A DNA stretch of 64,000 bases, from the NCBI GenBank assembly GCA_000091205.1, contig AP006499.2; one strand, given 5' to 3'. Positions 3,784 to 61,579 of this stretch are shown piece after piece. Source of the stretch: Cyanidioschyzon merolae (taxonomy: Eukaryota). The first letter of the stretch is position 1. Each line of letters starts with the position of its first letter. The position numbers and the translations under genes are program-made. Below the pieces are notes generated by a model. That model worked only from the letters and a program-made list of their open reading frames with translations, did not search any database and was not told where the DNA came from.

Positions 3784-5153
3784 GGCAGGATCGACGGACA
3801 ATGGAACGTGGGAAATAACCGAGATCTCTGAAGGATCCTATGACTCATGCAAGTTTACGGATGACGGGGCGTGGAACGATGAACCCGTCCCTGACCGTTG
3901 ATGTCAAGTGCGTTCCCGGGAGTCTCCGGTCCGTATAAACGACCTGCGCAACAACGGTATCCATATGGACACCGAAACGCTAGAGCGGGACCTGCTGCTG
4001 ACCTGCATGTGCCACAGGCGGGGTTTCGGAGAGGCGCTGCGGCTCCACGGCGGGCGCCGCTAAGCACCCAGACGCCATCCAGCGCATGTCGATATCTTGT
4101 CAATTATGCAACGGTTATGGATCGTACTGGCTGTACAAACCACTCCTCGGCGAGACGACGACACATCGTGCATGCAAGTAATGGGCAGCATAACTTTGGG
4201 CGATCCGCTACCGCTTCTATGCTGCGGTGGTAACGAGCACGCTGAGAGTCGCCTTGTCCGTCCATCTAATCTCAGCGTAAAAGTTGCGGGACTTTTGGAG
4301 CACGACAACGCATGCTTTGCTCCCCGCAGCGAACGGTAACAGGAAACAGAGCTTCCGGTCTTCTGGTCCAGGAGCATCCCGAACGCCATCGTTGCGCAGC
4401 GTGCGGGCTCGCACACCCCCTGAAACATGTGCCGTATTTGGAGAGTATCTTGAGTGCACGATTGCTGTATGGAACCAGAGAGGAGTGCTCAGATCCCCTG
4501 CAGTTGCTTGTATGCTACATTAATTTCGCAGCGCACCCTACCTCAGGAACAAAGGTTGGATACGAATATCACCAAAACAGCGCTAGCTGCATACCATTCA
4601 GCCATTGTTCGCATGATGGGTCTCGCGGTGCTCCCAGGATATGTAGAGGGAACGCGATCCCACATCCGCAAAGACATTCAAAAGCTCTGCTGTCTCTGGT
4701 TGTCTCTTTGGCAGTGGCGGTTGCACCTTCGACGTCCCAGCAAGCACCAGAGGTGGCCTCGGTAGCCGCAGGTTTATTGGATTCATCCGACCTCGATTCT
4801 CAGCGCACGACTGCTCCGGAGTTTGTGTAACCTACTGGATACTGCGGGAGCGCAATTAGCTCCATCCTGGATACCACTTCATAGCCTGGGTGCATCCATG
4901 AGGTTGAATCTGTTTCGCTCCGTCGATCTCCCGACTAGTGAGCACCACGAGTGCGCCACGGCGCTCTGGCGCAGCCGCAACGCTTGTTCTACATCTCTAC
5001 GTAGGCGGCTTCGAAGCCGTGTTTGGATGTTGGCTGTCTGGCAGTGTCGCGCACGGAACGGAACCTCAGTAGTCTTGTCGCTCATACGATATAAAAATTT
5101 CACAGGCACTCTCATCCGCTAGTTGGTAGCTGCATCCTTCAGTCTCTGTCAAG

Positions 5154-9646: not shown

Positions 9647-12600
9647 ATGCAGAGTCCTGCGGAAGCATTGTCGCAGCAGCATGCACAAGGTTGGCACTTC
9701 ACGAGAGGACCTTTCGCCGTACTCGGCTTTGTCAACCTGTTTCCTGCGGGGGCTGGATCGAACTTTGCTACGAGAAACTTGCTACGGAAAGGTCGCTGCA
9801 GTAAACAGCAGCTGCGGGGAAAGCGCTGGTGCTGTGTGCGCGGCTTCCGAGTAGAGCGTCAGTCCCTGCAGGCTGCCGCCGAGGTGCCGACGCCTTACCG
9901 CTTCGCGCTGGGGCGAGCACCGGTCGAGCGAGCCAAGGCAGCGGGACCGATCTCGCAGCAGCATGCTCGATCAGAGGAAGAGTTGAACGAACTCGTAGCG
10001 AAGAGGTTCTTAGAACTGGTCCGCAGTGAGGGCACTGGGCCCGTTGGCGTTCCGGCTCAGCTGGTGAAGCCGGCTTGGCTCGAATGGAGCGACCGCATGG
10101 CCACCAGGCTGGCTGGTTTGGGGCAAGTCTGGCGCGTACTCTTCAGTGTGCTACTTGCAGCAACTATTGGGGCGGCTGCGGCCGGCGTAACGCCACCGGG
10201 ACGTCGACGCGCTGCGGGTTTCGCCGCGGGTGCGCTTCCAACTGCAGCGCTTGCCGTGGTGATGCTCCGGCGGGGACGCTCGATTGGTGCACCGCGAGCG
10301 CTCGCAAGCGCTCTTGTCGAGAGCACGGTTGCTGTATCGACGAAGAACATGCCGAGTGCGAGCGATGATCAGCGTCGCCGTGCAGACGACAATGGCGGCG
10401 AAGACACGGAAAGCGACGACAATGGAGCGACGTCCTCAAACGCGCCACCGCGACTGGGGCTTGCCTCACACATCGATCCGGAGATGATTCAGCGTGTGGC
10501 AATACAATACGGGATGCAGCCGGACGCTCCATCGTGGAAGCTGGAGACGCTTGTTGGTCTCTATGAACGATACCTACTGGCTTTGGTGCAGACGAGCGGC
10601 ACGCCGCGCGTCTCCGAAGTTCGCCAGTTGAAAGCACTGCGCTCCGCGTTTGGTCTGAGTCATGTCGATGTCGGTGACGCGCATCATCAAGTAGCGATGC
10701 GTTTTCGTAGAGAAAATTTCGTCTATATTGACGACTATATTCGCGCACAAGACGTCGACGATCGGAACTATGATGAGATCTTCCGGGAACGCGCACAAGA
10801 TGTGAATCAGAAACTTTCCAAGCTACTCTTCCTATCTGCACGCGTGCTCGACGATCCAACTGAACCAGAGGAGGCTTACCGCTACGAAATGGCCCGCTTG
10901 CGCAACGTATTTGACTTGTCAGAATCAGAGTTTCAGGCGCGTGTTCGTGACATTGCCGTTCCTTTCTACCAGACCGCAGTGCGGAAGGCTGTATGGCTGC
11001 TTGAGCAAGGTCGGTCGATCACTTTAGAGAAATTGCGATCTGCTCGGGAAATGCTGGATGTTGACGATGGCACCGCTAGTCGTCTGCATCTGGAGGCGTA
11101 TGGAGCGCTCGTGCAGCGCCTCCTGCAAGCACATTCGAACGAGAAAGTCCCACGTCTATCCGCAAAAGACATGAGCGTGCTCCAGGAGGCAAGGAGGCTT
11201 TTGGATATCGATGCAGGCGATGCAGATGCGCTGCTCCGCGATGCCGCAGAGCCGCTCTATCAGCAAGAGGTGGAGCGCGTCGTTGAGTCTGCAGATCTTC
11301 GCATTCCTACGGCACATGGGCGCCTAGCGGTGCGTCGGGAAGAGCTGGGGCTCAGCGTAGAGCTCGCACGCACAGCGGCAGAGAAGTGGATTCGCGGGCG
11401 TGTTACCGCTATCCTGAAGGATGCCACACGAGCGCTCCGCGTTCAGAACCTTACCATGACGATTGAAGAACTGAATCGCCTGCTGGGGCTTATCCGCAGA
11501 AGCTTGAGCATCATTCATGGCGTCGTCTGGGAAGAGGTCGTTCCGAATTCGGCCGAGCAACGCACCGTGAACGCGTCACTGGAGCGTATCATGAGTGTGC
11601 TCCTTGATGAGCTCGCGGACCTAGAGCGCCAGCAGCTCTATCGAGTGTACCTGGCAAAATGTCTTGAGGACCGCATGATTGACGCACAAGAAGGACGCAA
11701 CCTCGATGATCTTCGCGCCGTTCTGCGTATTTCTGAAAACGAAGCTGCCCAAGCGTACAACCGTGCTGCTGGTCCCGTCTACCGGGAAGCTGTGCTCGAG
11801 GTCATGGCAAATCGAAGCGAGTTTACGGACGCGGATATCCAGAGCCTGAACCAAATAGCAGGCGACCTGCATATACCGGCCAAGGTTGCCCACGATATTC
11901 GTATGGAGCTGTATCGAGAGCGTCTTGAAGCGAGCACCCGCGATAATCGGGTACCATCGGAGGAAGAGTCCAGTCAGCTGGCGCGTTTGCGAGAGCTGCT
12001 CCAGTTGGATTCGGAGGCGCTCGCGGCACTGCACGCCAGCGTCTGCGCAGGCACCTATGCGCAGTCAGTCGACGAGTGCATGGGCTCGAACGGCATCATC
12101 CCGGAGCCGTATCGCGCCGGGCTGGAGCGTCTGCGACAACGGCTCTGCCTTGATGAACGACGTGCCCGAGAGCTCTTCCTGCAGGTAGCTCGTCGACGAA
12201 TGGCGGGCTATGTACAGCGCGCGATCAAGCTCCTCCAGAAGAAACAGTCGTTTCGGGGTCAGGATGAAGAGCGCGATGTCGGTGACGATCCCTTCGTGCG
12301 ACGAGCGGGCGCTTTTCTGGGCATCGAGGCGGGTACCATCACCATTGAGCTGAGTAACTTGATCGATTTCTACATCCGCAATGGAATCCTAGAGATGGAG
12401 AATGAACAGGCTGTGTACCCGGTGAACCTCCGGGGTGTCTTCGATCTGAACATTCTTCAGGAGATGTATCGACAATACCTCATCCAGTCCTTCGCAGCGA
12501 AAAGTCGCACAGAAAAGGAGCGCCTCTTTAACAACCTCGCACATTTGGGGAACATCCTGGGCCTTACTTCAGCCGAGGTCAATGCCATTCATTCGAATAT

Positions 12601-13303
12601 CGGCTCCGTAATCTACAAAACCTATGCATCACAGGCGCTGACGAATAATCGGCTCGAGGAGAAGGATATCGAGTTTCTGCGGAATATTCAAAACATGCTC
12701 AGCATGGACGAGGCAACGTGCAGGACGCTGCTCCAAGAGACAAAGGAGGCGCGCGCAGGCTTCCTCTTTGACAAGATCTTCTCTCGCACATTTGGGATGG
12801 CGGAAGCGGTGGCAGAGTTTCGACGCGTGTGTCGCGAGCTTGACGTTGATCCTGTGCGGGACCTGAAACTCACCGAGGATCGTCGTGTTCGAGCTTTTCG
12901 GGCAGAGATAGAGCACGCCATTGAGAACGGACTCATTACGCCTGAGAACCAAAGTCTGCTGAAGGAGTCTCAAGAAGAACTGGGGATTTCAGCGGAAAAA
13001 GCTCGACAGGTTTTGCTCGACTGCATCCAGGATCGCTGCGAGGCGCTCATCGTGCAGGCGGCAGCGTCTCTGCGTCAACGTCGTCAAGAGGGCGCAGCGC
13101 GAGACTTGAGCCGAGCGCTGCGCTTTGGCAAGTTGCTTCCGTTCCAGGTGCAGACGCCCACGGTGACGGGTGCAGAGCGCCAAGAGCTCTACCTGGTGTA
13201 CCAGGCGTATGCGCTGGGCACCGCCCGCTCTAATGCCGAGAACGATCAGGTGAAAGAGGATCTCGCGCTGCTGCGAGAGATGTTGGGAATCCAAGCCGCC
13301 TAA
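9647..13303 (+). CDS. TIC110: Tic110-like protein (chloroplast inner-envelope translocon component): N-terminal presequence, two hydrophobic helices, then a long array of helical-hairpin repeats
   Basis: A 1218-aa ORF with an ATG start. After ~150 aa of presequence there are two hydrophobic segments (VWRVLFSVLLAATIGAAAAGV and AAGFAAGALPTAALAVVML). These are followed by at least 14 degenerate repeats of the form L..L...LGLS/D...A....a.....YR..L. Examples are LKALRSAFGLSHVDVGDAH, LRNVFDLSESEFQARVRDIAVPFYQ, LNQIAGDLHIPAKVAHDIRMELYRERL and SQEELGISAEKARQVL. This matches the known Tic110 architecture. I have no database search to back it. Confidence 0.7.
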   Translation: MQSPAEALSQQHAQGWHFTRGPFAVLGFVNLFPAGAGSNFATRNLLRKGRCSKQQLRGKRWCCVRGFRVERQSLQAAAEVPTPYRFALGRAPVERAKAAGPISQQHARSEEELNELVAKRFLELVRSEGTGPVGVPAQLVKPAWLEWSDRMATRLAGLGQVWRVLFSVLLAATIGAAAAGVTPPGRRRAAGFAAGALPTAALAVVMLRRGRSIGAPRALASALVESTVAVSTKNMPSASDDQRRRADDNGGEDTESDDNGATSSNAPPRLGLASHIDPEMIQRVAIQYGMQPDAPSWKLETLVGLYERYLLALVQTSGTPRVSEVRQLKALRSAFGLSHVDVGDAHHQVAMRFRRENFVYIDDYIRAQDVDDRNYDEIFRERAQDVNQKLSKLLFLSARVLDDPTEPEEAYRYEMARLRNVFDLSESEFQARVRDIAVPFYQTAVRKAVWLLEQGRSITLEKLRSAREMLDVDDGTASRLHLEAYGALVQRLLQAHSNEKVPRLSAKDMSVLQEARRLLDIDAGDADALLRDAAEPLYQQEVERVVESADLRIPTAHGRLAVRREELGLSVELARTAAEKWIRGRVTAILKDATRALRVQNLTMTIEELNRLLGLIRRSLSIIHGVVWEEVVPNSAEQRTVNASLERIMSVLLDELADLERQQLYRVYLAKCLEDRMIDAQEGRNLDDLRAVLRISENEAAQAYNRAAGPVYREAVLEVMANRSEFTDADIQSLNQIAGDLHIPAKVAHDIRMELYRERLEASTRDNRVPSEEESSQLARLRELLQLDSEALAALHASVCAGTYAQSVDECMGSNGIIPEPYRAGLERLRQRLCLDERRARELFLQVARRRMAGYVQRAIKLLQKKQSFRGQDEERDVGDDPFVRRAGAFLGIEAGTITIELSNLIDFYIRNGILEMENEQAVYPVNLRGVFDLNILQEMYRQYLIQSFAAKSRTEKERLFNNLAHLGNILGLTSAEVNAIHSNIGSVIYKTYASQALTNNRLEEKDIEFLRNIQNMLSMDEATCRTLLQETKEARAGFLFDKIFSRTFGMAEAVAEFRRVCRELDVDPVRDLKLTEDRRVRAFRAEIEHAIENGLITPENQSLLKESQEELGISAEKARQVLLDCIQDRCEALIVQAAASLRQRRQEGAARDLSRALRFGKLLPFQVQTPTVTGAERQELYLVYQAYALGTARSNAENDQVKEDLALLREMLGIQAA

Positions 13304-25571: not shown

Positions 25572-27589
25572 GTCTTTAAGCAAGCCTGCGCCTCTGAGTT
25601 TTATGCAGAACTTGTGGCTACCCGCACACAAGGCCGTCACTTGCTGAAGTGCAGGGCGGCTTGGGCTTCCCGGCCTCCACAGCGTGCTCCGCCTCCTGGA
25701 AGCGTTGTTTCGTGCAGCCGACACCTGTTGTACACTGGGGCGGCGGCGATACTTGTTCAGGTTTTACTGGAGATACGCACGGCGTTCTCGTCTTGGACGC
25801 AAGCTAGTTCGGAAGTTGAACGCTGAAACGTAGCTCCAGTAGGTCACTTAGAGATGCATCAAATCGTATCCACAGCTCATACGAAGGAACCAACCTTGTA
25901 CACGGTAGCTTTTCAGGCATGCTCGTACATTGACTGCAATAGTTCGCTGCACAGGTCACGCACAGCCAATTGACCGCTTCAGAGGGACTGTTTCTCATTT
26001 CGTAGAAGGACGACCGAATGCATCAGTCTTTTGTTTTTCAAAAGGCTTCTATGGCTGCATGGCTGCAATGGAACCAGCCTGAAGGATAAGCAGTAGAGTC
26101 CGGGGACAGCAACGACTTGCGACGCCGTACACCAACCAGTTTGCAGCGTCCGTGGCTTGCTCGGAGCCTCCAACGCTACAGCGGCTCTTTCGTGGTGCTG
26201 AGAAGGGCACTGCACGCAGTACTGCATGGTTCAGTTGAGGCTTTTGGCGTCGCTCGTGAGTCCTGGCTTGTTGCAACCGGCAAGTCACAACGCCGTTGCT
26301 TTTTTATCATCATGCACGCCAAAGCAGATGCTCAGAGTTCAACATCCAGTGCTGATCTTGGAAGCGAACATGTGCCATCAGCTTCCGAAAGTATTGTTCC
26401 GTCCATAGAATGAAGCGATGAACGTGTCTCGCCTCAAAAGTAGTTTCTTCCGAAGCGTTCTGCTGACGTATCTCAGGAGAGCTCCTTGAAATTTCGGACT
26501 CCGGTGAGTGGCGAAAACAGGTTGAACAAATACACGGCAGCTGGTAGCGGTTCTCTGCTTAGAGTTCTAGGGATTAGAGACCGCCAGAAGAACGTAGATA
26601 TGCCTGCCTTGCGTTGAACAATGCTATCATTCACATCCGGGACGCGATCTACATTTGTGTCAGATGGAAATACAGCGCGGAACGGCTCGCTCTGTTCCCG
26701 TATTTCGATGTTTTCCGGCCTGGTTTAAATGGATAGCTCGATATTCAGTGTGCGGCAATGAGGGTATATGAATGCATACCTCGTTTGAGGATGCTCGGTC
26801 GTCATGTCACCTTCGACGCTTTTCCGCTGGAATTCGATACGTGATCAGAGTCAAGATGATTCGCGACGCTGTCAAACAAGGCCTCGTATGGTAAACGATA
26901 CCACTATCGAATGCGTGCGCACAGGTATCCGCTCTTCTGCTTTCAGTACATGCGGCAAGCTCGATTCACGCGTTCTCTAGGTTTTGGAGTTTTCTGTTCC
27001 AAGGCAACCTGCAGTCGCAGCCAATGGCGCCTTTGAGTTGACGATGGAAATTCTCGACATCGCCCATGGACGACTTGTTCACAAGCTCATGCCGCACGTT
27101 CATTGAACTTGTCACTCCGAATAATGGCTGGCGTTCGAGAAACCAATTCGCCTTCCATTGAAGCCATCGATGAAATCTCATTGGACAACAGCTTGATACT
27201 TCTCATGGGATATGCTCCCAGGGGTTCCAGTCTATTTTAATAACATGGCAAAGAGTCTTGGGCTCGGACTCTAACCATCGCAGCGACCGCACCGGCGCTA
27301 CAGGCGCCATTTCTGTCGCTTTCGGCAGGCACTAGGCACACACGATAGGACATATGAAACGACCAGAATATCCGAGAAGAAGTATAGGTCATGTAACTTG
27401 GGAGTAGGGGGTTGATAGATACTTTACCCCGCACTGAAAAAAAAAGCCAAAAAGAAAAGAAAAATGCGCAGAGTCGGAGAACGCTGGCCTAAGGAAGCGT
27501 CTTGTCCATGAAAAAAAATCAACGATGCCAACGCGCGTGACACAGCGTTGCGTGCGCCGCCTTCTTCTCCGCAGCCGAGGCAGCTGATG

Positions 27590-57430: not shown

Positions 57431-58712
57431 AGGAACAGCGTGAAACAACTCGAGAGCCTTGTCCTCCAGTATCTATTTACGCCTAATCGGTACCGAACGC
57501 TAACGTTGCTCGCTGTGAAACACCCCGATACAAACTGGAGTGCGTTCCCCGAAGCGACGTCTATCGTGTGTTGCGTGCCGCACGAGTTGAGGCACGGCTC
57601 ACTACTGTCGATGAATTGTAGACGAGACGCACCGCCGCAAGCAGCCATGCCTCGGTCCAGTGAAGCCATGGGGCTTGCGTTCGCCACGACGGCCATAGAC
57701 TCATACTAGTATAAAATTGGACAGGTCCATTTTGCGAAACCCCGACAGATACACATCTGAATACCAGCATCCGCGGACGTTTTTTCTGCGATCATTTCCT
57801 TTTCCTTTCATGCAGCTCCGTCTTTGAATGCGCGGGTCTCTCTTTTGCCTCGAGATCCATTGCCAGCAGTCGACGGATGTTGATCGGAGCTTTCAACTTC
57901 TCATCTCGCTGCTTCCACTACTGTCAATGAATCTCATGCGCAGGCGGTTACTGAGATCCGCCCTTCGCTTCCCATATTCATCTTCTTTGTATGCAGACTC
58001 GGTGTGCGCCTCGCGCCGGTGACACTTGTGTGTGGTCAGGTGTTTCGGTATGGTCAGCGTACCTCCTTCGCATCCTCTTCCGAGAGTCACCCAGCGGTAC
58101 ATGAAGGCTCTTTTCATCGCTCGGTACATGCGCTTTTCTAACACAGAAGGCTCCATCGGGCGCGCTACCCCATTTTACGCGCCCAGCATCATTTCCCTTG
58201 ATCACGCGATTTTATCAATCGGATCCTTTCAGCCAGTATGCTGCATACTGCACGTGCGAGCGCATGCGATTCCAGTAAACAGAGGATTTGTGGCAGGGAA
58301 TGTTGTCCATAATAAAAACCCTGTTCGGGAATGCAGATATAGGTTGGCGAAGCATTCGAGAATTTCCGATCTCTCTACGCGACCTACAAGTAAACCGATG
58401 ACGCGCTCTCCGCTGAAAGCAATCGCTACGTTAACGAAGGTCCGGATCTAAGACTCTTTTGCCATAGAAACAGGGCAAACGACAGAGTCTGTGCTTGCGA
58501 ATCCTGTAATGGATATATAGCTGCTGTGGAATCTCGTTTCGTCGACTGCCACAAGGAGCGAAGCATCTATATTCCGAACAAAATCCAGGATTTGACGTCA
58601 CAAGTTCCGTGAACCTCGACCCGAGCTTGTGATCAGGTCGTTTATCGAGCGGCTCGAATGACTGCGCCATCAAGCTGCATTCAAACAAACATAGGGAACG
58701 CTTCAGGAATGC

Positions 58713-59190
58713 GCGATTAAAGCACGCTACGCATAACGAATTCGAAAGCATGAACGCTTGCATCTTTGCATTGGATGACGATATCGGTTATTTCAGCTTC
58801 AAGAATACGCGATTAAAGCACGCTACGCATAACGAATTCGAAAGCATGAACGCTTGCATCTTTGCATTGGATGACGATATCGGTTATTTCAGCTTCAAGA
58901 ATACGCGATTAAAGCACGCTACGCATAACGAATTCGAAAGCATGAACGCTTGCATCTTTGCATTGGATGACGATATCGGTTATTTCAGCTTCAAGAATAC
59001 GCGATTAAAGCACGCTACGCATAACGAATTCGAAAGCATGAACGCTTGCATCTTTGCATTGGATGATGATATCGGTCATTTCAGCTTCAAGAATACGCGA
59101 TTAAAGCATGCTACGCATAACGAATTCGAAAGCATGAACGCTTGCATCTTTGCATTGGATGACGATATCGGGTATTTCACGATGCCTTGT
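58713..59190. repeat. 96-bp minisatellite, 5 near-identical tandem units; open in one + frame as five 32-aa repeats (MNACIFALDDDIGYFSFKNTRLKHATHNEFES)
   Basis: The unit gcgattaaagcacgctacgcataacgaattcgaaagcatgaacgcttgcatctttgcattggatgacgatatcggttatttcagcttcaagaatac begins at 58713, 58809, 58905, 59001 and 59097. Only 3-4 substitutions occur across the array. ORF 58750-59229 is an in-frame reading of the array. There is no evidence beyond openness that it codes. Confidence 0.9.
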
Positions 59191-59959
59191 TCGAGTGCGT
59201 CACGATTCATCTTGATTCCGGCAAGGTAAAAAGCCCTGCGGCAACTCGTCGATAAAACCAGCCCTAAAATACAACCGAGTATCCTGAAGCTGCGTATGTA
59301 CCCGTACGCTCATATTCCAGAACTTCAAAAGTCAAAGCCGTACATCCAAAGCAAGTTTGTCAAAGACGTGCAAGCAGGAACAAATTGAGCAGCTTAGTGT
59401 TCGATGAGCAGCTGACACGACTGCAGGCCCCGATTTCACGTGATCCGCTCCGTGAACTCCTGCGTTTCAGGGCGATTTTTTTTCATTGACAAAACGTTTA
59501 CTTAGGCCAGCGTTCTCCGATTATGCGCATTTTCCTTTTCTTACTTTTTTGTGTGTTTTTTTGCGCGGTGAGGTATCCATCAACCCCTACCTTCACGTTA
59601 CATTACCTATACTTCTTCTCGGATATTCTGGTCGTTTCATATGTCCTATCGTGTGTGCCTAGTGCCTGCCGAAAGCGACAGCAGTAGCGCCTATAGCGCC
59701 GGTGTGGTCGCTGCACGGAGACAGAACGACGTTGCCGTACCACACAGAGGGCGTCGGCTCGAGGGTTTCCGGGCGATGCTCTGATCGGCCGCGCACAATG
59801 GATGGACATGAAAATCCATTTTTGTATAGTCTCCACGAGTGCGCCGTTTGCGAGCGATGAACGCTCCGGGCTGCACTGCCGCCGCAGCGACACGGAGGCG
59901 CAGCGACCTGCAAGCGCCTACAGACGTCGAAACACATTCGTTGCAGACCGAGTAAGACC

Positions 59960-60142
59960 ATGGACGAGATAAGCACATTGCCACCAAAACGAGTGTCGCT
60001 TCAAACTGTAAAAGATTCCATTGCGAAAGAGTGGACGACGAAGGAGCTGCGCACACAGAACCTCAAGTTCGTTCGGAACCTAGCTTTTTTCATTGGAGCG
60101 ATCTACGTTTTTCGCAAGTACGGCAAGTGGATGGAAATCTAG
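59960..60142 (+). CDS. Small ORF (60 aa) with strong Kozak context (gaccATGG) and a C-terminal hydrophobic/amphipathic helix; weak resemblance to the cytosolic helix of Sec61-gamma/SecE
   Basis: The protein is MDEISTLPPKRVSLQTVKDSIAKEWTTKELRTQNLKFVRNLAFFIGAIYVFRKYGKWMEI. The segment S.Q.VKDSI...TK..R...K matches Sec61-gamma ([25 protein letters not shown]). The universally conserved C-terminal transmembrane region (IGFFVKLIHIPI) is not present, so the assignment is doubtful. Confidence 0.35.
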   Translation: MDEISTLPPKRVSLQTVKDSIAKEWTTKELRTQNLKFVRNLAFFIGAIYVFRKYGKWMEI

Positions 60143-60193
60143 TCCAGCTCACCTACCGTGCTAAAACACACTTGTGCGAGTGTGTTCTATAAT

Positions 60194-61579
60194 ATGGAGC
60201 AGGTATCAGGGACAGAGTCGCCGGCGAGGAGGCAGGGTTCTGTTCCTCCACAGCTTGAGTCAACGGCGGCAGGTTTCCCGGCCGCAGGCCACCGGGACGC
60301 TCCGGCATTCGCAACGCTCGGCGCGCTGGCACGTGAACGCATTGCACGGACAAGCGTTTCGCACCGGCAGCTTGCCCGTGAGAGCGGCAGCGTGTCCGAA
60401 GAAAGTGAGCGGCGCCCCAGTGCTGATGCACTTGCTTGGCAGCACTGCTGCTGGCGGGCGCCGACTGAGCGTTCGGACGCCGTAGCGCTCTTCAGTTTGT
60501 CGGAGGTGTTCCTATTGATCCGGAGTGAGTACGCGCCACAGTCTGTTTATGGGTGGCTAATGCTGACGCATATGCTTCGAATGCCACCGGAAACGCTCGC
60601 TCGCGAGGCTGTGATCGACCCGGAAATCAGAGCAGAACAGGCATCAGTTGGCGACGAAAATAGGACGTATGGTGGTTTTCTGGAGCTTGTGCTTTTCATG
60701 CACGTGGGGGTCGCTTTGCGGGATGCACTGCACTCGCGAAATCGCAACGTGAACGAGGCTGCCCTGGAATGTCTGGCGCATTTGCTGCATCGTCTCTTCG
60801 ATAGCGACGTGCTTGCTTTTGTTGACGGGTGTGTCTTCGAAGATGACAAGGACCAGATAGGCGACGATTACAATGAAGAGGCATTGATAGACCTTTGGGC
60901 TTCCATGGAGCTCCGGAACGACTCCGATAACCCGAGCTCCCGCGCCAAACATGGAGACAACGACAACGATACCGTTGATGAGGATGCAGAGGTCGGTGCT
61001 GCCGGTTCCACCGCCATGGGCAGCAATCTCTATGAAGACTACCGCCCTACGTCCCATGACTGGGTTATCGAAATGGTGACCACCGGTCTGGTTCCGGTTC
61101 TGCTCGGACTTTTCCAGAGCAAACTGCGACAGCATGTGATCGATCCCCGGGTAACCAGATTGAGTTACTTCCTGATATGGGTGCTGCACCCGTGTCTACG
61201 ACTAGATGAGGGCGCGAGCATCTTGAAACAATTGCTCTCCATTGCACTTGCTTTGCTGGAACGTGTCGGATCCGCTGAACCCCAGCAGACTACCAACAGC
61301 GAAACGGGACCTTTGGCGGCGGCAGCGCAGTCGGCCCTGATGCATAGCCTACGAGCAGCCGCCGTACTTGCCATGGATGAGCGTCTCGACATCGAGGAAT
61401 CTGTCCAACACGTAATGGAGGCGAAGCTTCAGCTATGGTTGAATCACTTGGACCTTGAAAACAAGCTGGGACGCCAAGTTGCGAGAAGCATGCAGGCGCT
61501 CGTGTCCATCATGACACGAAACCGTCGCCAAGTAACAAGTTTGTCGCAGTCCGTAAACAATGAGCTTCAGTACTCGTGA
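60194..61579 (+). CDS. Hypothetical protein (~461 aa from the first ATG), no domain recognised; acidic low-complexity insert in the middle
   Basis: The ORF track begins at a GTG at 60158. This is in the same frame as the 60-aa ORF upstream and separated from it by a single TAG. The first in-frame ATG is at 60194 in the context tataATGG. GC content is coding-like and the length is 1.4 kb. Confidence 0.45.
   Translation: MEQVSGTESPARRQGSVPPQLESTAAGFPAAGHRDAPAFATLGALARERIARTSVSHRQLARESGSVSEESERRPSADALAWQHCCWRAPTERSDAVALFSLSEVFLLIRSEYAPQSVYGWLMLTHMLRMPPETLAREAVIDPEIRAEQASVGDENRTYGGFLELVLFMHVGVALRDALHSRNRNVNEAALECLAHLLHRLFDSDVLAFVDGCVFEDDKDQIGDDYNEEALIDLWASMELRNDSDNPSSRAKHGDNDNDTVDEDAEVGAAGSTAMGSNLYEDYRPTSHDWVIEMVTTGLVPVLLGLFQSKLRQHVIDPRVTRLSYFLIWVLHPCLRLDEGASILKQLLSIALALLERVGSAEPQQTTNSETGPLAAAAQSALMHSLRAAAVLAMDERLDIEESVQHVMEAKLQLWLNHLDLENKLGRQVARSMQALVSIMTRNRRQVTSLSQSVNNELQYS

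Follow-up and report, generated by a model that had tools for sequence, protein, structure and literature searches.

A homologue of plant-type TOM5 in a conserved tight tandem with CMQ355C in Cyanidioschyzon merolae and other Cyanidiales

In a stretch of 64,000 nucleotides from the red alga Cyanidioschyzon merolae (contig AP006499.2; this whole stretch is called the window hereafter), two open reading frames (ORFs) follow each other closely on the + strand. Reading of the sequence and the ORF table place ORF1 between an ATG at 59960 and a TAG at 60140-60142 (59960..60142; 60 aa), and ORF2 is opened by the next in-frame ATG, at 60194, and runs to 61579, encoding 461 aa that are all identical (461/461) to CYME_CMQ355C of C. 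merolae 10D (BAM82211.1, XP_005538247.1, UniProt M1UVW8), annotated as "hypothetical protein". Our results indicate that this locus holds two genuine protein genes, each with its own terminator, arranged as a conserved tight tandem, and that ORF1 is very probably a red-algal homologue of plant-type TOM5. We also lean towards the view that both ORFs are carried on one bicistronic mRNA. A preliminary description of this DNA had noted that the two ORFs share a frame and lie about 50 bp apart, which the sequence and the ORF table bear out: both are in frame 2 (coordinate mod 3), and 51 nt, or 17 sense codons, lie between the TAG of ORF1 and the ATG of ORF2. It had counted only five sense codons there and started ORF2 at 60158, a position that is in fact a GTG heading a 473-codon bacterial-style ORF and not the start of the 461-aa protein, whose start context reads tataatATGG instead of the tataATGG given.

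The identity of ORF1 is supported by several comparisons. A database protein identical to ORF1 (P0001) and a relative with 71% identity to it (P0002) carry the precomputed Pfam assignment PF27930 (TOM5_2), as do the orthologues, and a search with Arabidopsis TOM5 (a query 96% identical to the database entry) retrieved plant proteins annotated as "Mitochondrial import receptor subunit TOM5" from Arabidopsis, Brassicaceae and Fragaria, all with PF27930. In our local Pfam scan, neither ORF1 nor ORF2 nor the convergent neighbour had a match, the copy of the database used apparently lacking PF27930. BLASTP of ORF1 against the Arabidopsis protein produced an ungapped alignment of 27 residues reaching both C-termini (30 bits, E 7e-8). 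Profile comparison with hhalign of two red-algal sequences against six plant TOM5 gave a probability of 95.7% (E 8e-9), rising to 97.4% (E 1e-11, 51 of 54 columns) with four red-algal sequences. Nine residues (N34, R39, L41, F44, G46, R52, Y54, G55 and M58) are invariant in these four red-algal and six plant sequences, and all ten end at one alignment column.

ORF1 is built like TOM5, with a variable N-terminus followed by a short hydrophobic anchor that has an arginine on either side and by a tail of eight residues. The anchor corresponds to residues 40-51 (NLAFFIGAIYVF), between R39 and R52, and belongs to a conserved core (N34 to I60; 60059..60139, + strand) that finishes with R-x-Y-G-x-W-M-x-I; the codon of the invariant Met58 (60131..60133) lies in the ORF1 frame three codons ahead of the stop. 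Plant-type TOM5 is similar in length (54-55 aa, against 47-60 aa in red algae), has the same hydrophobic anchor bounded by two arginines and shares with the red-algal proteins, after a variable N-terminus, the C-terminal pattern N-x-K/R-x-x-R-x-L-x-x-F-x-G-x-x-x-x-x-R-x-Y-G-x-x-M-x-I/V. In contrast, the N-terminal halves are unrelated, the identity of the red-algal members to the plant proteins is only about 28-30%, and, unlike plant TOM5, the red-algal proteins have in common EW(T/S)T(K/R)E(L/V)R and a tryptophan before the methionine. Over the last 38 sense codons of ORF1, comparison of C. merolae with the genome assembly GCA_041825655.1 revealed 26 identical codons, nine synonymous changes and three non-synonymous changes, a pattern that fits purifying selection on the protein. 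The product would be a tail-anchored subunit of about 6-7 kDa, expected next to the Tom40 channel in the outer membrane of mitochondria. A sequence search of the PDB with ORF1 found no match. When the plant TOM5 profile was searched against the PDB, the only match was a weak one to human TOM6 (7ck6_E, E 0.27), with none to human or yeast Tom5, which suggests that the names of the small TOM subunits may not track orthology across kingdoms.

The tandem is shared by the four Cyanidiales lineages in which it could be compared. The gene order PDS5, RBX1, PheRS (minus strand), TOM5 and ORF2 is the same in C. merolae, GCA_041825655.1, Cyanidiococcus yangmingshanensis and Cyanidium caldarium (4/4), with an ORF1 of 144-183 nt and an ORF2 of 1.2-1.4 kb. 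In C. merolae, the 60-aa TOM5 ends with TAG and is followed by a 51-nt spacer (60143..60193), placing ORF2 at a frame offset of 0. TOM5 has 59 aa in GCA_041825655.1, where it ends with TAA, 53 nt from the conserved ATG of ORF2 (offset 2), and where an extra ATG in the ORF2 frame is found 11 nt past the stop. In Cyanidiococcus, the protein also has 59 aa, with a TAG stop, a 53-nt spacer and an offset of 2, and in Cyanidium, where it is listed as a gene with TOM5_2, it has 47 aa, with a TGA stop, a 67-nt spacer and an offset of 1. The spacer sequences of the different species are unrelated, and it is the length (51-67 nt) that is kept. ORF2 itself is poorly conserved, identity between the C. merolae protein and those of the three remaining lineages being only 27-42%. 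The ORF2 of GCA_041825655.1 (L001/L010, JBBELT010000325.1) is 53% identical to that of Cyanidiococcus yangmingshanensis and 42% to that of C. merolae, and this genome appears to represent a distinct lineage at the species level or higher. Its gene calls are prokaryote-style, with GTG starts overlapping TOM5; we considered an N-terminal extension of ORF2 over ORF1, as in a 485-aa GTG call of this assembly, and rejected it because it is a call of this kind and is not conserved in C. merolae.

An ORF2 profile, searched with HMMER against all 1.84 billion representatives, recovered three clusters only, all from Cyanidiales: C. merolae, Cyanidiococcus yangmingshanensis (KAF6003923.1, KAK4530660.1) and Cyanidium caldarium (KAK4535525.1). 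Word-based homology searches with each ORF found only the same species and a single relative, and a metagenome scan with the red-algal TOM5 alignment found C. merolae-type contigs only, with no context from Galdieria or another outgroup. ORF2 (60194..61579, + strand) is a Cyanidiales-restricted protein; it is unrelated to TOM5 and is an ARM/HEAT-like alpha-solenoid with a disordered N-terminus.

Several observations point to a coupling of the two genes. A same-strand gap of 51-67 nt, kept over such a deep divergence, is too short for a 3' end followed by an independent promoter with its leader. More likely than not, a single mRNA would begin about 30-45 nt upstream of the ORF1 AUG and carry both ORFs. 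Translation of ORF2 would in that case depend on ribosomes that pass over the ORF1 AUG (leaky scanning) or that resume scanning past the short ORF1, a mode that would resemble the one of green-algal bicistronic loci and of the bicistronic transcripts of other Cyanidiophyceae. The stretch that such ribosomes would have to cross is poor in ATGs. Between 59960 and 60194, the only ATGs in any frame are the two starts and the one at 60131, and, apart from this conserved methionine, the numbers of ATGs between the two starts in C. merolae, GCA_041825655.1, Cyanidiococcus and Cyanidium are 0, 1 (in the ORF2 frame), 0 and 0, where resampling of synonymous codons and shuffling of the spacer predicted 2.9, 4.7, 3.9 and 1.4 (P 0.027, 0.024, 0.004 and 0.21, respectively). 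As a sign of coupling, this avoidance of ATGs before ORF2 is suggestive.

The nucleotide sequence of ORF1 also appears to be constrained beyond its protein. Where residues are identical, the codons agree more often in ORF1 than in the controls ORF2, RBX1 and PheRS in each of the six lineage pairs, with codon identities of 0.46 to 0.81 against 0.24 to 0.54 (loci L001, L013 and L011 compared). Two of the pairs, for instance, show 0.67 vs 0.38 (Fisher 4e-4) and 0.81 vs 0.47 (6e-5), and the Fisher values over the six pairs are 4e-4, 0.03, 0.15, 6e-5, 0.19 and 0.049. Within C. merolae, the 237 nt from the ORF1 ATG through the ORF2 ATG are identical in the 25 of 25 C. merolae-type loci that we fetched, representing 19 distinct assemblies from JGI, ENA and Logan; ORF1 plus spacer contain no variant in 234 nt, compared with 12 variable positions in the 260 nt upstream and 10 in ORF2. 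Together, the excess of synonymous conservation and the invariance of ORF1 and the spacer point to an additional constraint at the nucleotide level.

Assembled short reads provide indirect evidence of a transcript. Eight samples gave contigs that start 27-229 nt ahead of ORF1 and extend without a break into ORF2, and none of them starts or ends within ORF1 or the spacer. One (L016, SRR29605741) starts at 59917, another (L017, SRR29605745) has an Illumina adapter joined directly at 59925, two others are joined to unrelated sequence at 59921 (L029) and to a rearranged piece at 59933 (L030), and the remaining four start at 59731-59870. A-runs are found at the end of contig L006 and in L030 after 61570. 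The adapter on L017 and these A-runs suggest that at least some of the contigs are derived from RNA, and we infer that the contig ends at 59917-59933 are RNA 5' ends. The contigs would then fit one transcript carrying both ORFs behind a leader of about 30-45 nt. The putative leader of this ORF1, or possibly ORF1-ORF2, transcript (59917..59959, + strand), in which the contig ends cluster, contains no ATG, the nearest one upstream of ORF1 being at 59857. In the JGI contig L030 (1743-1770), the run is a C plus A24 that directly adjoins window position 61570, where 9 nt of ORF2, stop codon included, are still to come, and unrelated sequence lies behind it; either pieces were joined chimerically through a poly(A) tail, or the end of the coding region holds a poly(A) site.

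Nevertheless, some considerations weigh against a single mRNA. Compared with real coding windows of the same length, the lack of ATGs is less striking, with probabilities of finding no out-of-frame ATG of 0.11, 0.10 and 0.18 in three lineages and of finding at most one of 0.19 in the fourth; moreover, the four lineages are related, and the ATG-depletion tests are therefore not independent. The nucleotide constraint in ORF1 may stem from the avoidance of ATGs but could equally come from a promoter of ORF2 located inside ORF1, or from codon bias. Assembled short reads cannot separate one bicistronic mRNA from two overlapping mRNAs, and the type of these libraries is itself deduced. Regarding translation, 60 codons are long for efficient reinitiation after ORF1, and the start contexts of ORF1 (gaccATGG, ggcgATGG, gacaATGG and tcccATGG in the four lineages) have a purine at -3 in three of four cases, while green-algal ORF1s prefer weak contexts; however, the 17 candidate gene starts in the window display no clear preference at -3/+4 and no visible Kozak consensus. 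For the same reason, little weight attaches to the "good Kozak" ATGs to which the preliminary description had appealed, although the gaccATGG at ORF1 is indeed there.

The explanation that competes best with a bicistronic mRNA, and that we consider possible but the less probable of the two, is that of two independent, overlapping transcription units, in which the promoter and start of ORF2 would lie inside ORF1 or the spacer, the ORF1 mRNA would be polyadenylated inside ORF2 or beyond its start, and the tight spacing would reflect genome compaction. Cyanidiales genomes are very compact indeed (in Cyanidium, the convergent neighbour is 41 nt from the ORF2 stop), embedded promoter elements would suit both the synonymous conservation in ORF1 and the invariance of ORF1 and the spacer, an ORF2 5' untranslated region beginning inside ORF1 would suit the paucity of ATGs, and the short-read contigs are compatible with this arrangement. 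However, the spacer keeps its length and not its sequence over a very deep divergence, the avoidance of ATGs spans the whole of ORF1 and not just its 3' part, four contig boundaries cluster just upstream of ORF1 with none in ORF1 or the spacer, and bicistronic transcripts are documented in sister genera.

It is very unlikely that ORF1 is only a regulatory upstream ORF (uORF) of CMQ355C encoding a peptide that is itself functionless. A long uORF would typically have such a position and length, and conserved-peptide uORFs exist in plants. Nonetheless, this peptide shares homology, and nine invariant residues, with a bona fide TOM subunit on the other side of the red-green split, the changes in its core between lineages are mostly synonymous (9/38 codons, against 3/38 non-synonymous, between C. 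merolae and GCA_041825655.1), and the genome of C. merolae has no other known TOM5 candidate.

Even less credible is a TOM5-linker-CMQ355C fusion of about 539 aa, produced by programmed readthrough of the TAG or hidden by a sequencing or assembly error. This idea drew on the shared frame in C. merolae, with nothing but the TAG and 17 sense codons between the two ORFs. However, the frame offsets (0, 2, 2, 1) and the stop codons (TAG, TAA, TAG, TGA) differ among the four lineages, and for this reason we reject readthrough and regard the shared frame as a matter of chance (probability 1/3), observed in one of the four lineages. The linkers are likewise unrelated in sequence, no significant RNA structure is predicted 3' of the stop (fold z -1.68, -1.13, -0.53 and +0.58) and none is common to the lineages, and a U follows the stop, unlike the known readthrough contexts. 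Furthermore, the C-terminus of TOM5 is invariant from red algae to plants, including its end point, and a tail anchor requires a free and short C-terminus. Therefore, there is almost certainly no programmed readthrough at this stop, and the TAG (60140..60142) is a genuine terminator, at which orthologues and plant TOM5 end at the aligned residue. A sequencing error is likewise rejected, the junction being identical in 19 independent assemblies. A spliced fusion that removes the stop was also considered and rejected, as the extreme C-terminus, right to the stop, is where TOM5 is most conserved and as the frame offsets vary among lineages.

Finally, the view of ORF1 as a Sec61-gamma/SecE-like paralogue, to which we give next to no credence, is refuted at the sequence level: SLQTVKDSI is present in ORF1 and resembles SRQFVKDSI of human Sec61-gamma, and both proteins are small and tail-anchored, but this seven-residue coincidence in S.Q.VKDSI falls within the variable N-terminus and is not retained by the orthologues of Cyanidiococcus, Cyanidium and GCA_041825655.1 (WVHTVKEAA, VSIKAIKESL, largely missing in Cyanidium), the Pfam scan found no SecE/Sec61-gamma (PF00584) match at E<=10, BLASTP against human Sec61-gamma found no alignment at E<=100, the PDB search was equally empty, and the conserved part of ORF1 fits TOM5 instead. 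The preliminary description had held that ORF1 lacks the conserved transmembrane helix of Sec61-gamma; a claim that it has no membrane helix is wrong given the anchor at residues 40-51. This segment is short (12 residues between two arginines) and ends eight residues from the C-terminus, which is TOM5-like and differs from Sec61-gamma/SecE. Among the possibilities that the preliminary description had raised, a uORF-like arrangement and two unusually close genes came near to the evidence, and Sec61-gamma kinship, readthrough and error find no support.

ORF1 appears to have escaped annotation. Its protein (P0001) was not found in the NCBI, UniProt/UniRef and EukProt protein sets, its sources being metagenome, Logan and MetaClust data only, whereas its neighbours have NCBI, UniRef and EukProt entries. 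The RING-box protein upstream (RBX1) is BAM82209.1, so that the consecutive accessions leave room for a single gene between it and CMQ355C, namely the mitochondrial-type PheRS on the minus strand. As ORF1 has neither a source in these sets nor an accession to occupy, it would be unannotated in the C. merolae 10D reference. Literature searches on CMQ355C and on the SRR run numbers found nothing useful.

Within the disordered and otherwise poorly conserved N-terminus of CMQ355C, three lineages share the motif GFPAAGHR (residues 27-34; window 60272-60295) unchanged, and Cyanidium has a recognisable version of it (GFPEARRR). This motif may serve in linear-motif interactions. In Cyanidiococcus yangmingshanensis THAL066 (VWRR01000005.1, L012 ~5015-5025), a 1-nt insertion relative to strain 8.1.23 F7 causes a frameshift inside this motif, and KAF6003923.1 (431 aa) consequently begins at a downstream ATG, whereas the conserved start gives 442 aa in F7.

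Regarding the rest of the window, it has a G+C content of 56%, and an Rfam scan of it gave no match. Besides the genes already mentioned, it includes PDS5, an eIF4G-like MIF4G protein and a Tic110 homologue, the last being a 1218-aa ORF (9647-13303) with a Tic110 (chloroplast inner-envelope translocon) domain and a weak ARMH5 match, which marks the window as belonging to a plastid-bearing eukaryote. Upstream of ORF1, a tandem array of five 96-nt units (58700-59179; 97% matches) makes a 159-aa ORF (58750-59229) of a repeated 32-aa unit; its copy number varies among metagenome contigs, and several assemblies break there. Between this array and ORF1, a dispersed repeat of about 245 nt (59477-59720) is found again in inverted orientation at 27280-27517 with about 86% identity. 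Contig L006 leaves the window sequence exactly upstream of 59477, at the edge of this repeat; a structural variant could explain this departure, as could a chimeric join made through the repeat.

Minimal organelle biology has one of its models in C. merolae, whose genome is described in the literature as having only TOM40 and TOM22 identified as TOM components, a set on which a 2024 study builds a "single-step authentication" import model (PMC11298712). The presence of a TOM5 homologue in four Cyanidiales lineages corrects this inventory and dates plant-type TOM5 back to the ancestor shared by red and green algae. In addition, the TOM5-CMQ355C pair is a clean candidate, conserved over deep divergence, on which to study how red algae translate bicistronic mRNAs, in a species that is genetically tractable. 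The advance is modest, since the protein family and the gene arrangement were both already known, and the result is useful but incremental. A bolder proposal, which we regard as improbable, is that the pair forms an obligate bicistronic mRNA kept throughout Cyanidiales because its products cooperate, with the ORF2 protein as a lineage-specific cytosolic partner of TOM. If this were true, the ARM-like protein would act as a receptor, a chaperone-docking factor or an assembly factor for TOM, would replace the Tom20- and Tom70-type receptors that these algae lack, and would have its dosage relative to TOM5 set by leaky scanning.

Among the closest known systems are the polycistronic transcripts of Cyanidiophyceae, detected by Iso-Seq in the same order of algae. 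These are mostly bicistronic and number 470 in Cyanidium and 334 in Cyanidiococcus, with others in Galdieria (Cho et al., 2023, PMC9812998, Supplementary Note 8); that study predicted no internal ribosome entry site in Cyanidiales, left the translation mechanism open (Cho et al., 2023, PMC9812998) and reports no Iso-Seq for C. merolae. In the portions of its supplements available to us, the Cyanidium and Cyanidiococcus gene identifiers of the TOM5-ORF2 pair were not found; TOM5 is unannotated in the gene sets of Cyanidiococcus F7 and C. merolae, and the pair could therefore not have been scored there.

Also close are the bicistronic loci of green algae, which combine a short ORF1, short 5' untranslated regions, median inter-ORF distances of 40-183 nt and a depletion of ATGs before ORF2, and which are translated by leaky scanning (Duenas et al., PMC11291117). 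Two conserved same-strand ORFs with a short ORF1 and a gap within the range of algal bicistronic loci (tens to about 200 nt) are found in all four Cyanidiales lineages, although the start context of the C. merolae ORF1 is not demonstrably weak. A flagship example in green algae, which is translated by leaky scanning, is the locus of TOM22 (the AtTOM9 orthologue) and SDHAF3 (PMC11291117). As in the tandem described here, its ORF1 encodes a small tail-anchored TOM subunit and its ORF2 a larger unrelated protein, the inter-ORF gap measures tens of nucleotides with few ATGs before ORF2, the leader is apparently short, and the pairing is kept across genera. In contrast, the locus of C. merolae belongs to the red-algal lineage and involves another TOM subunit and another partner.

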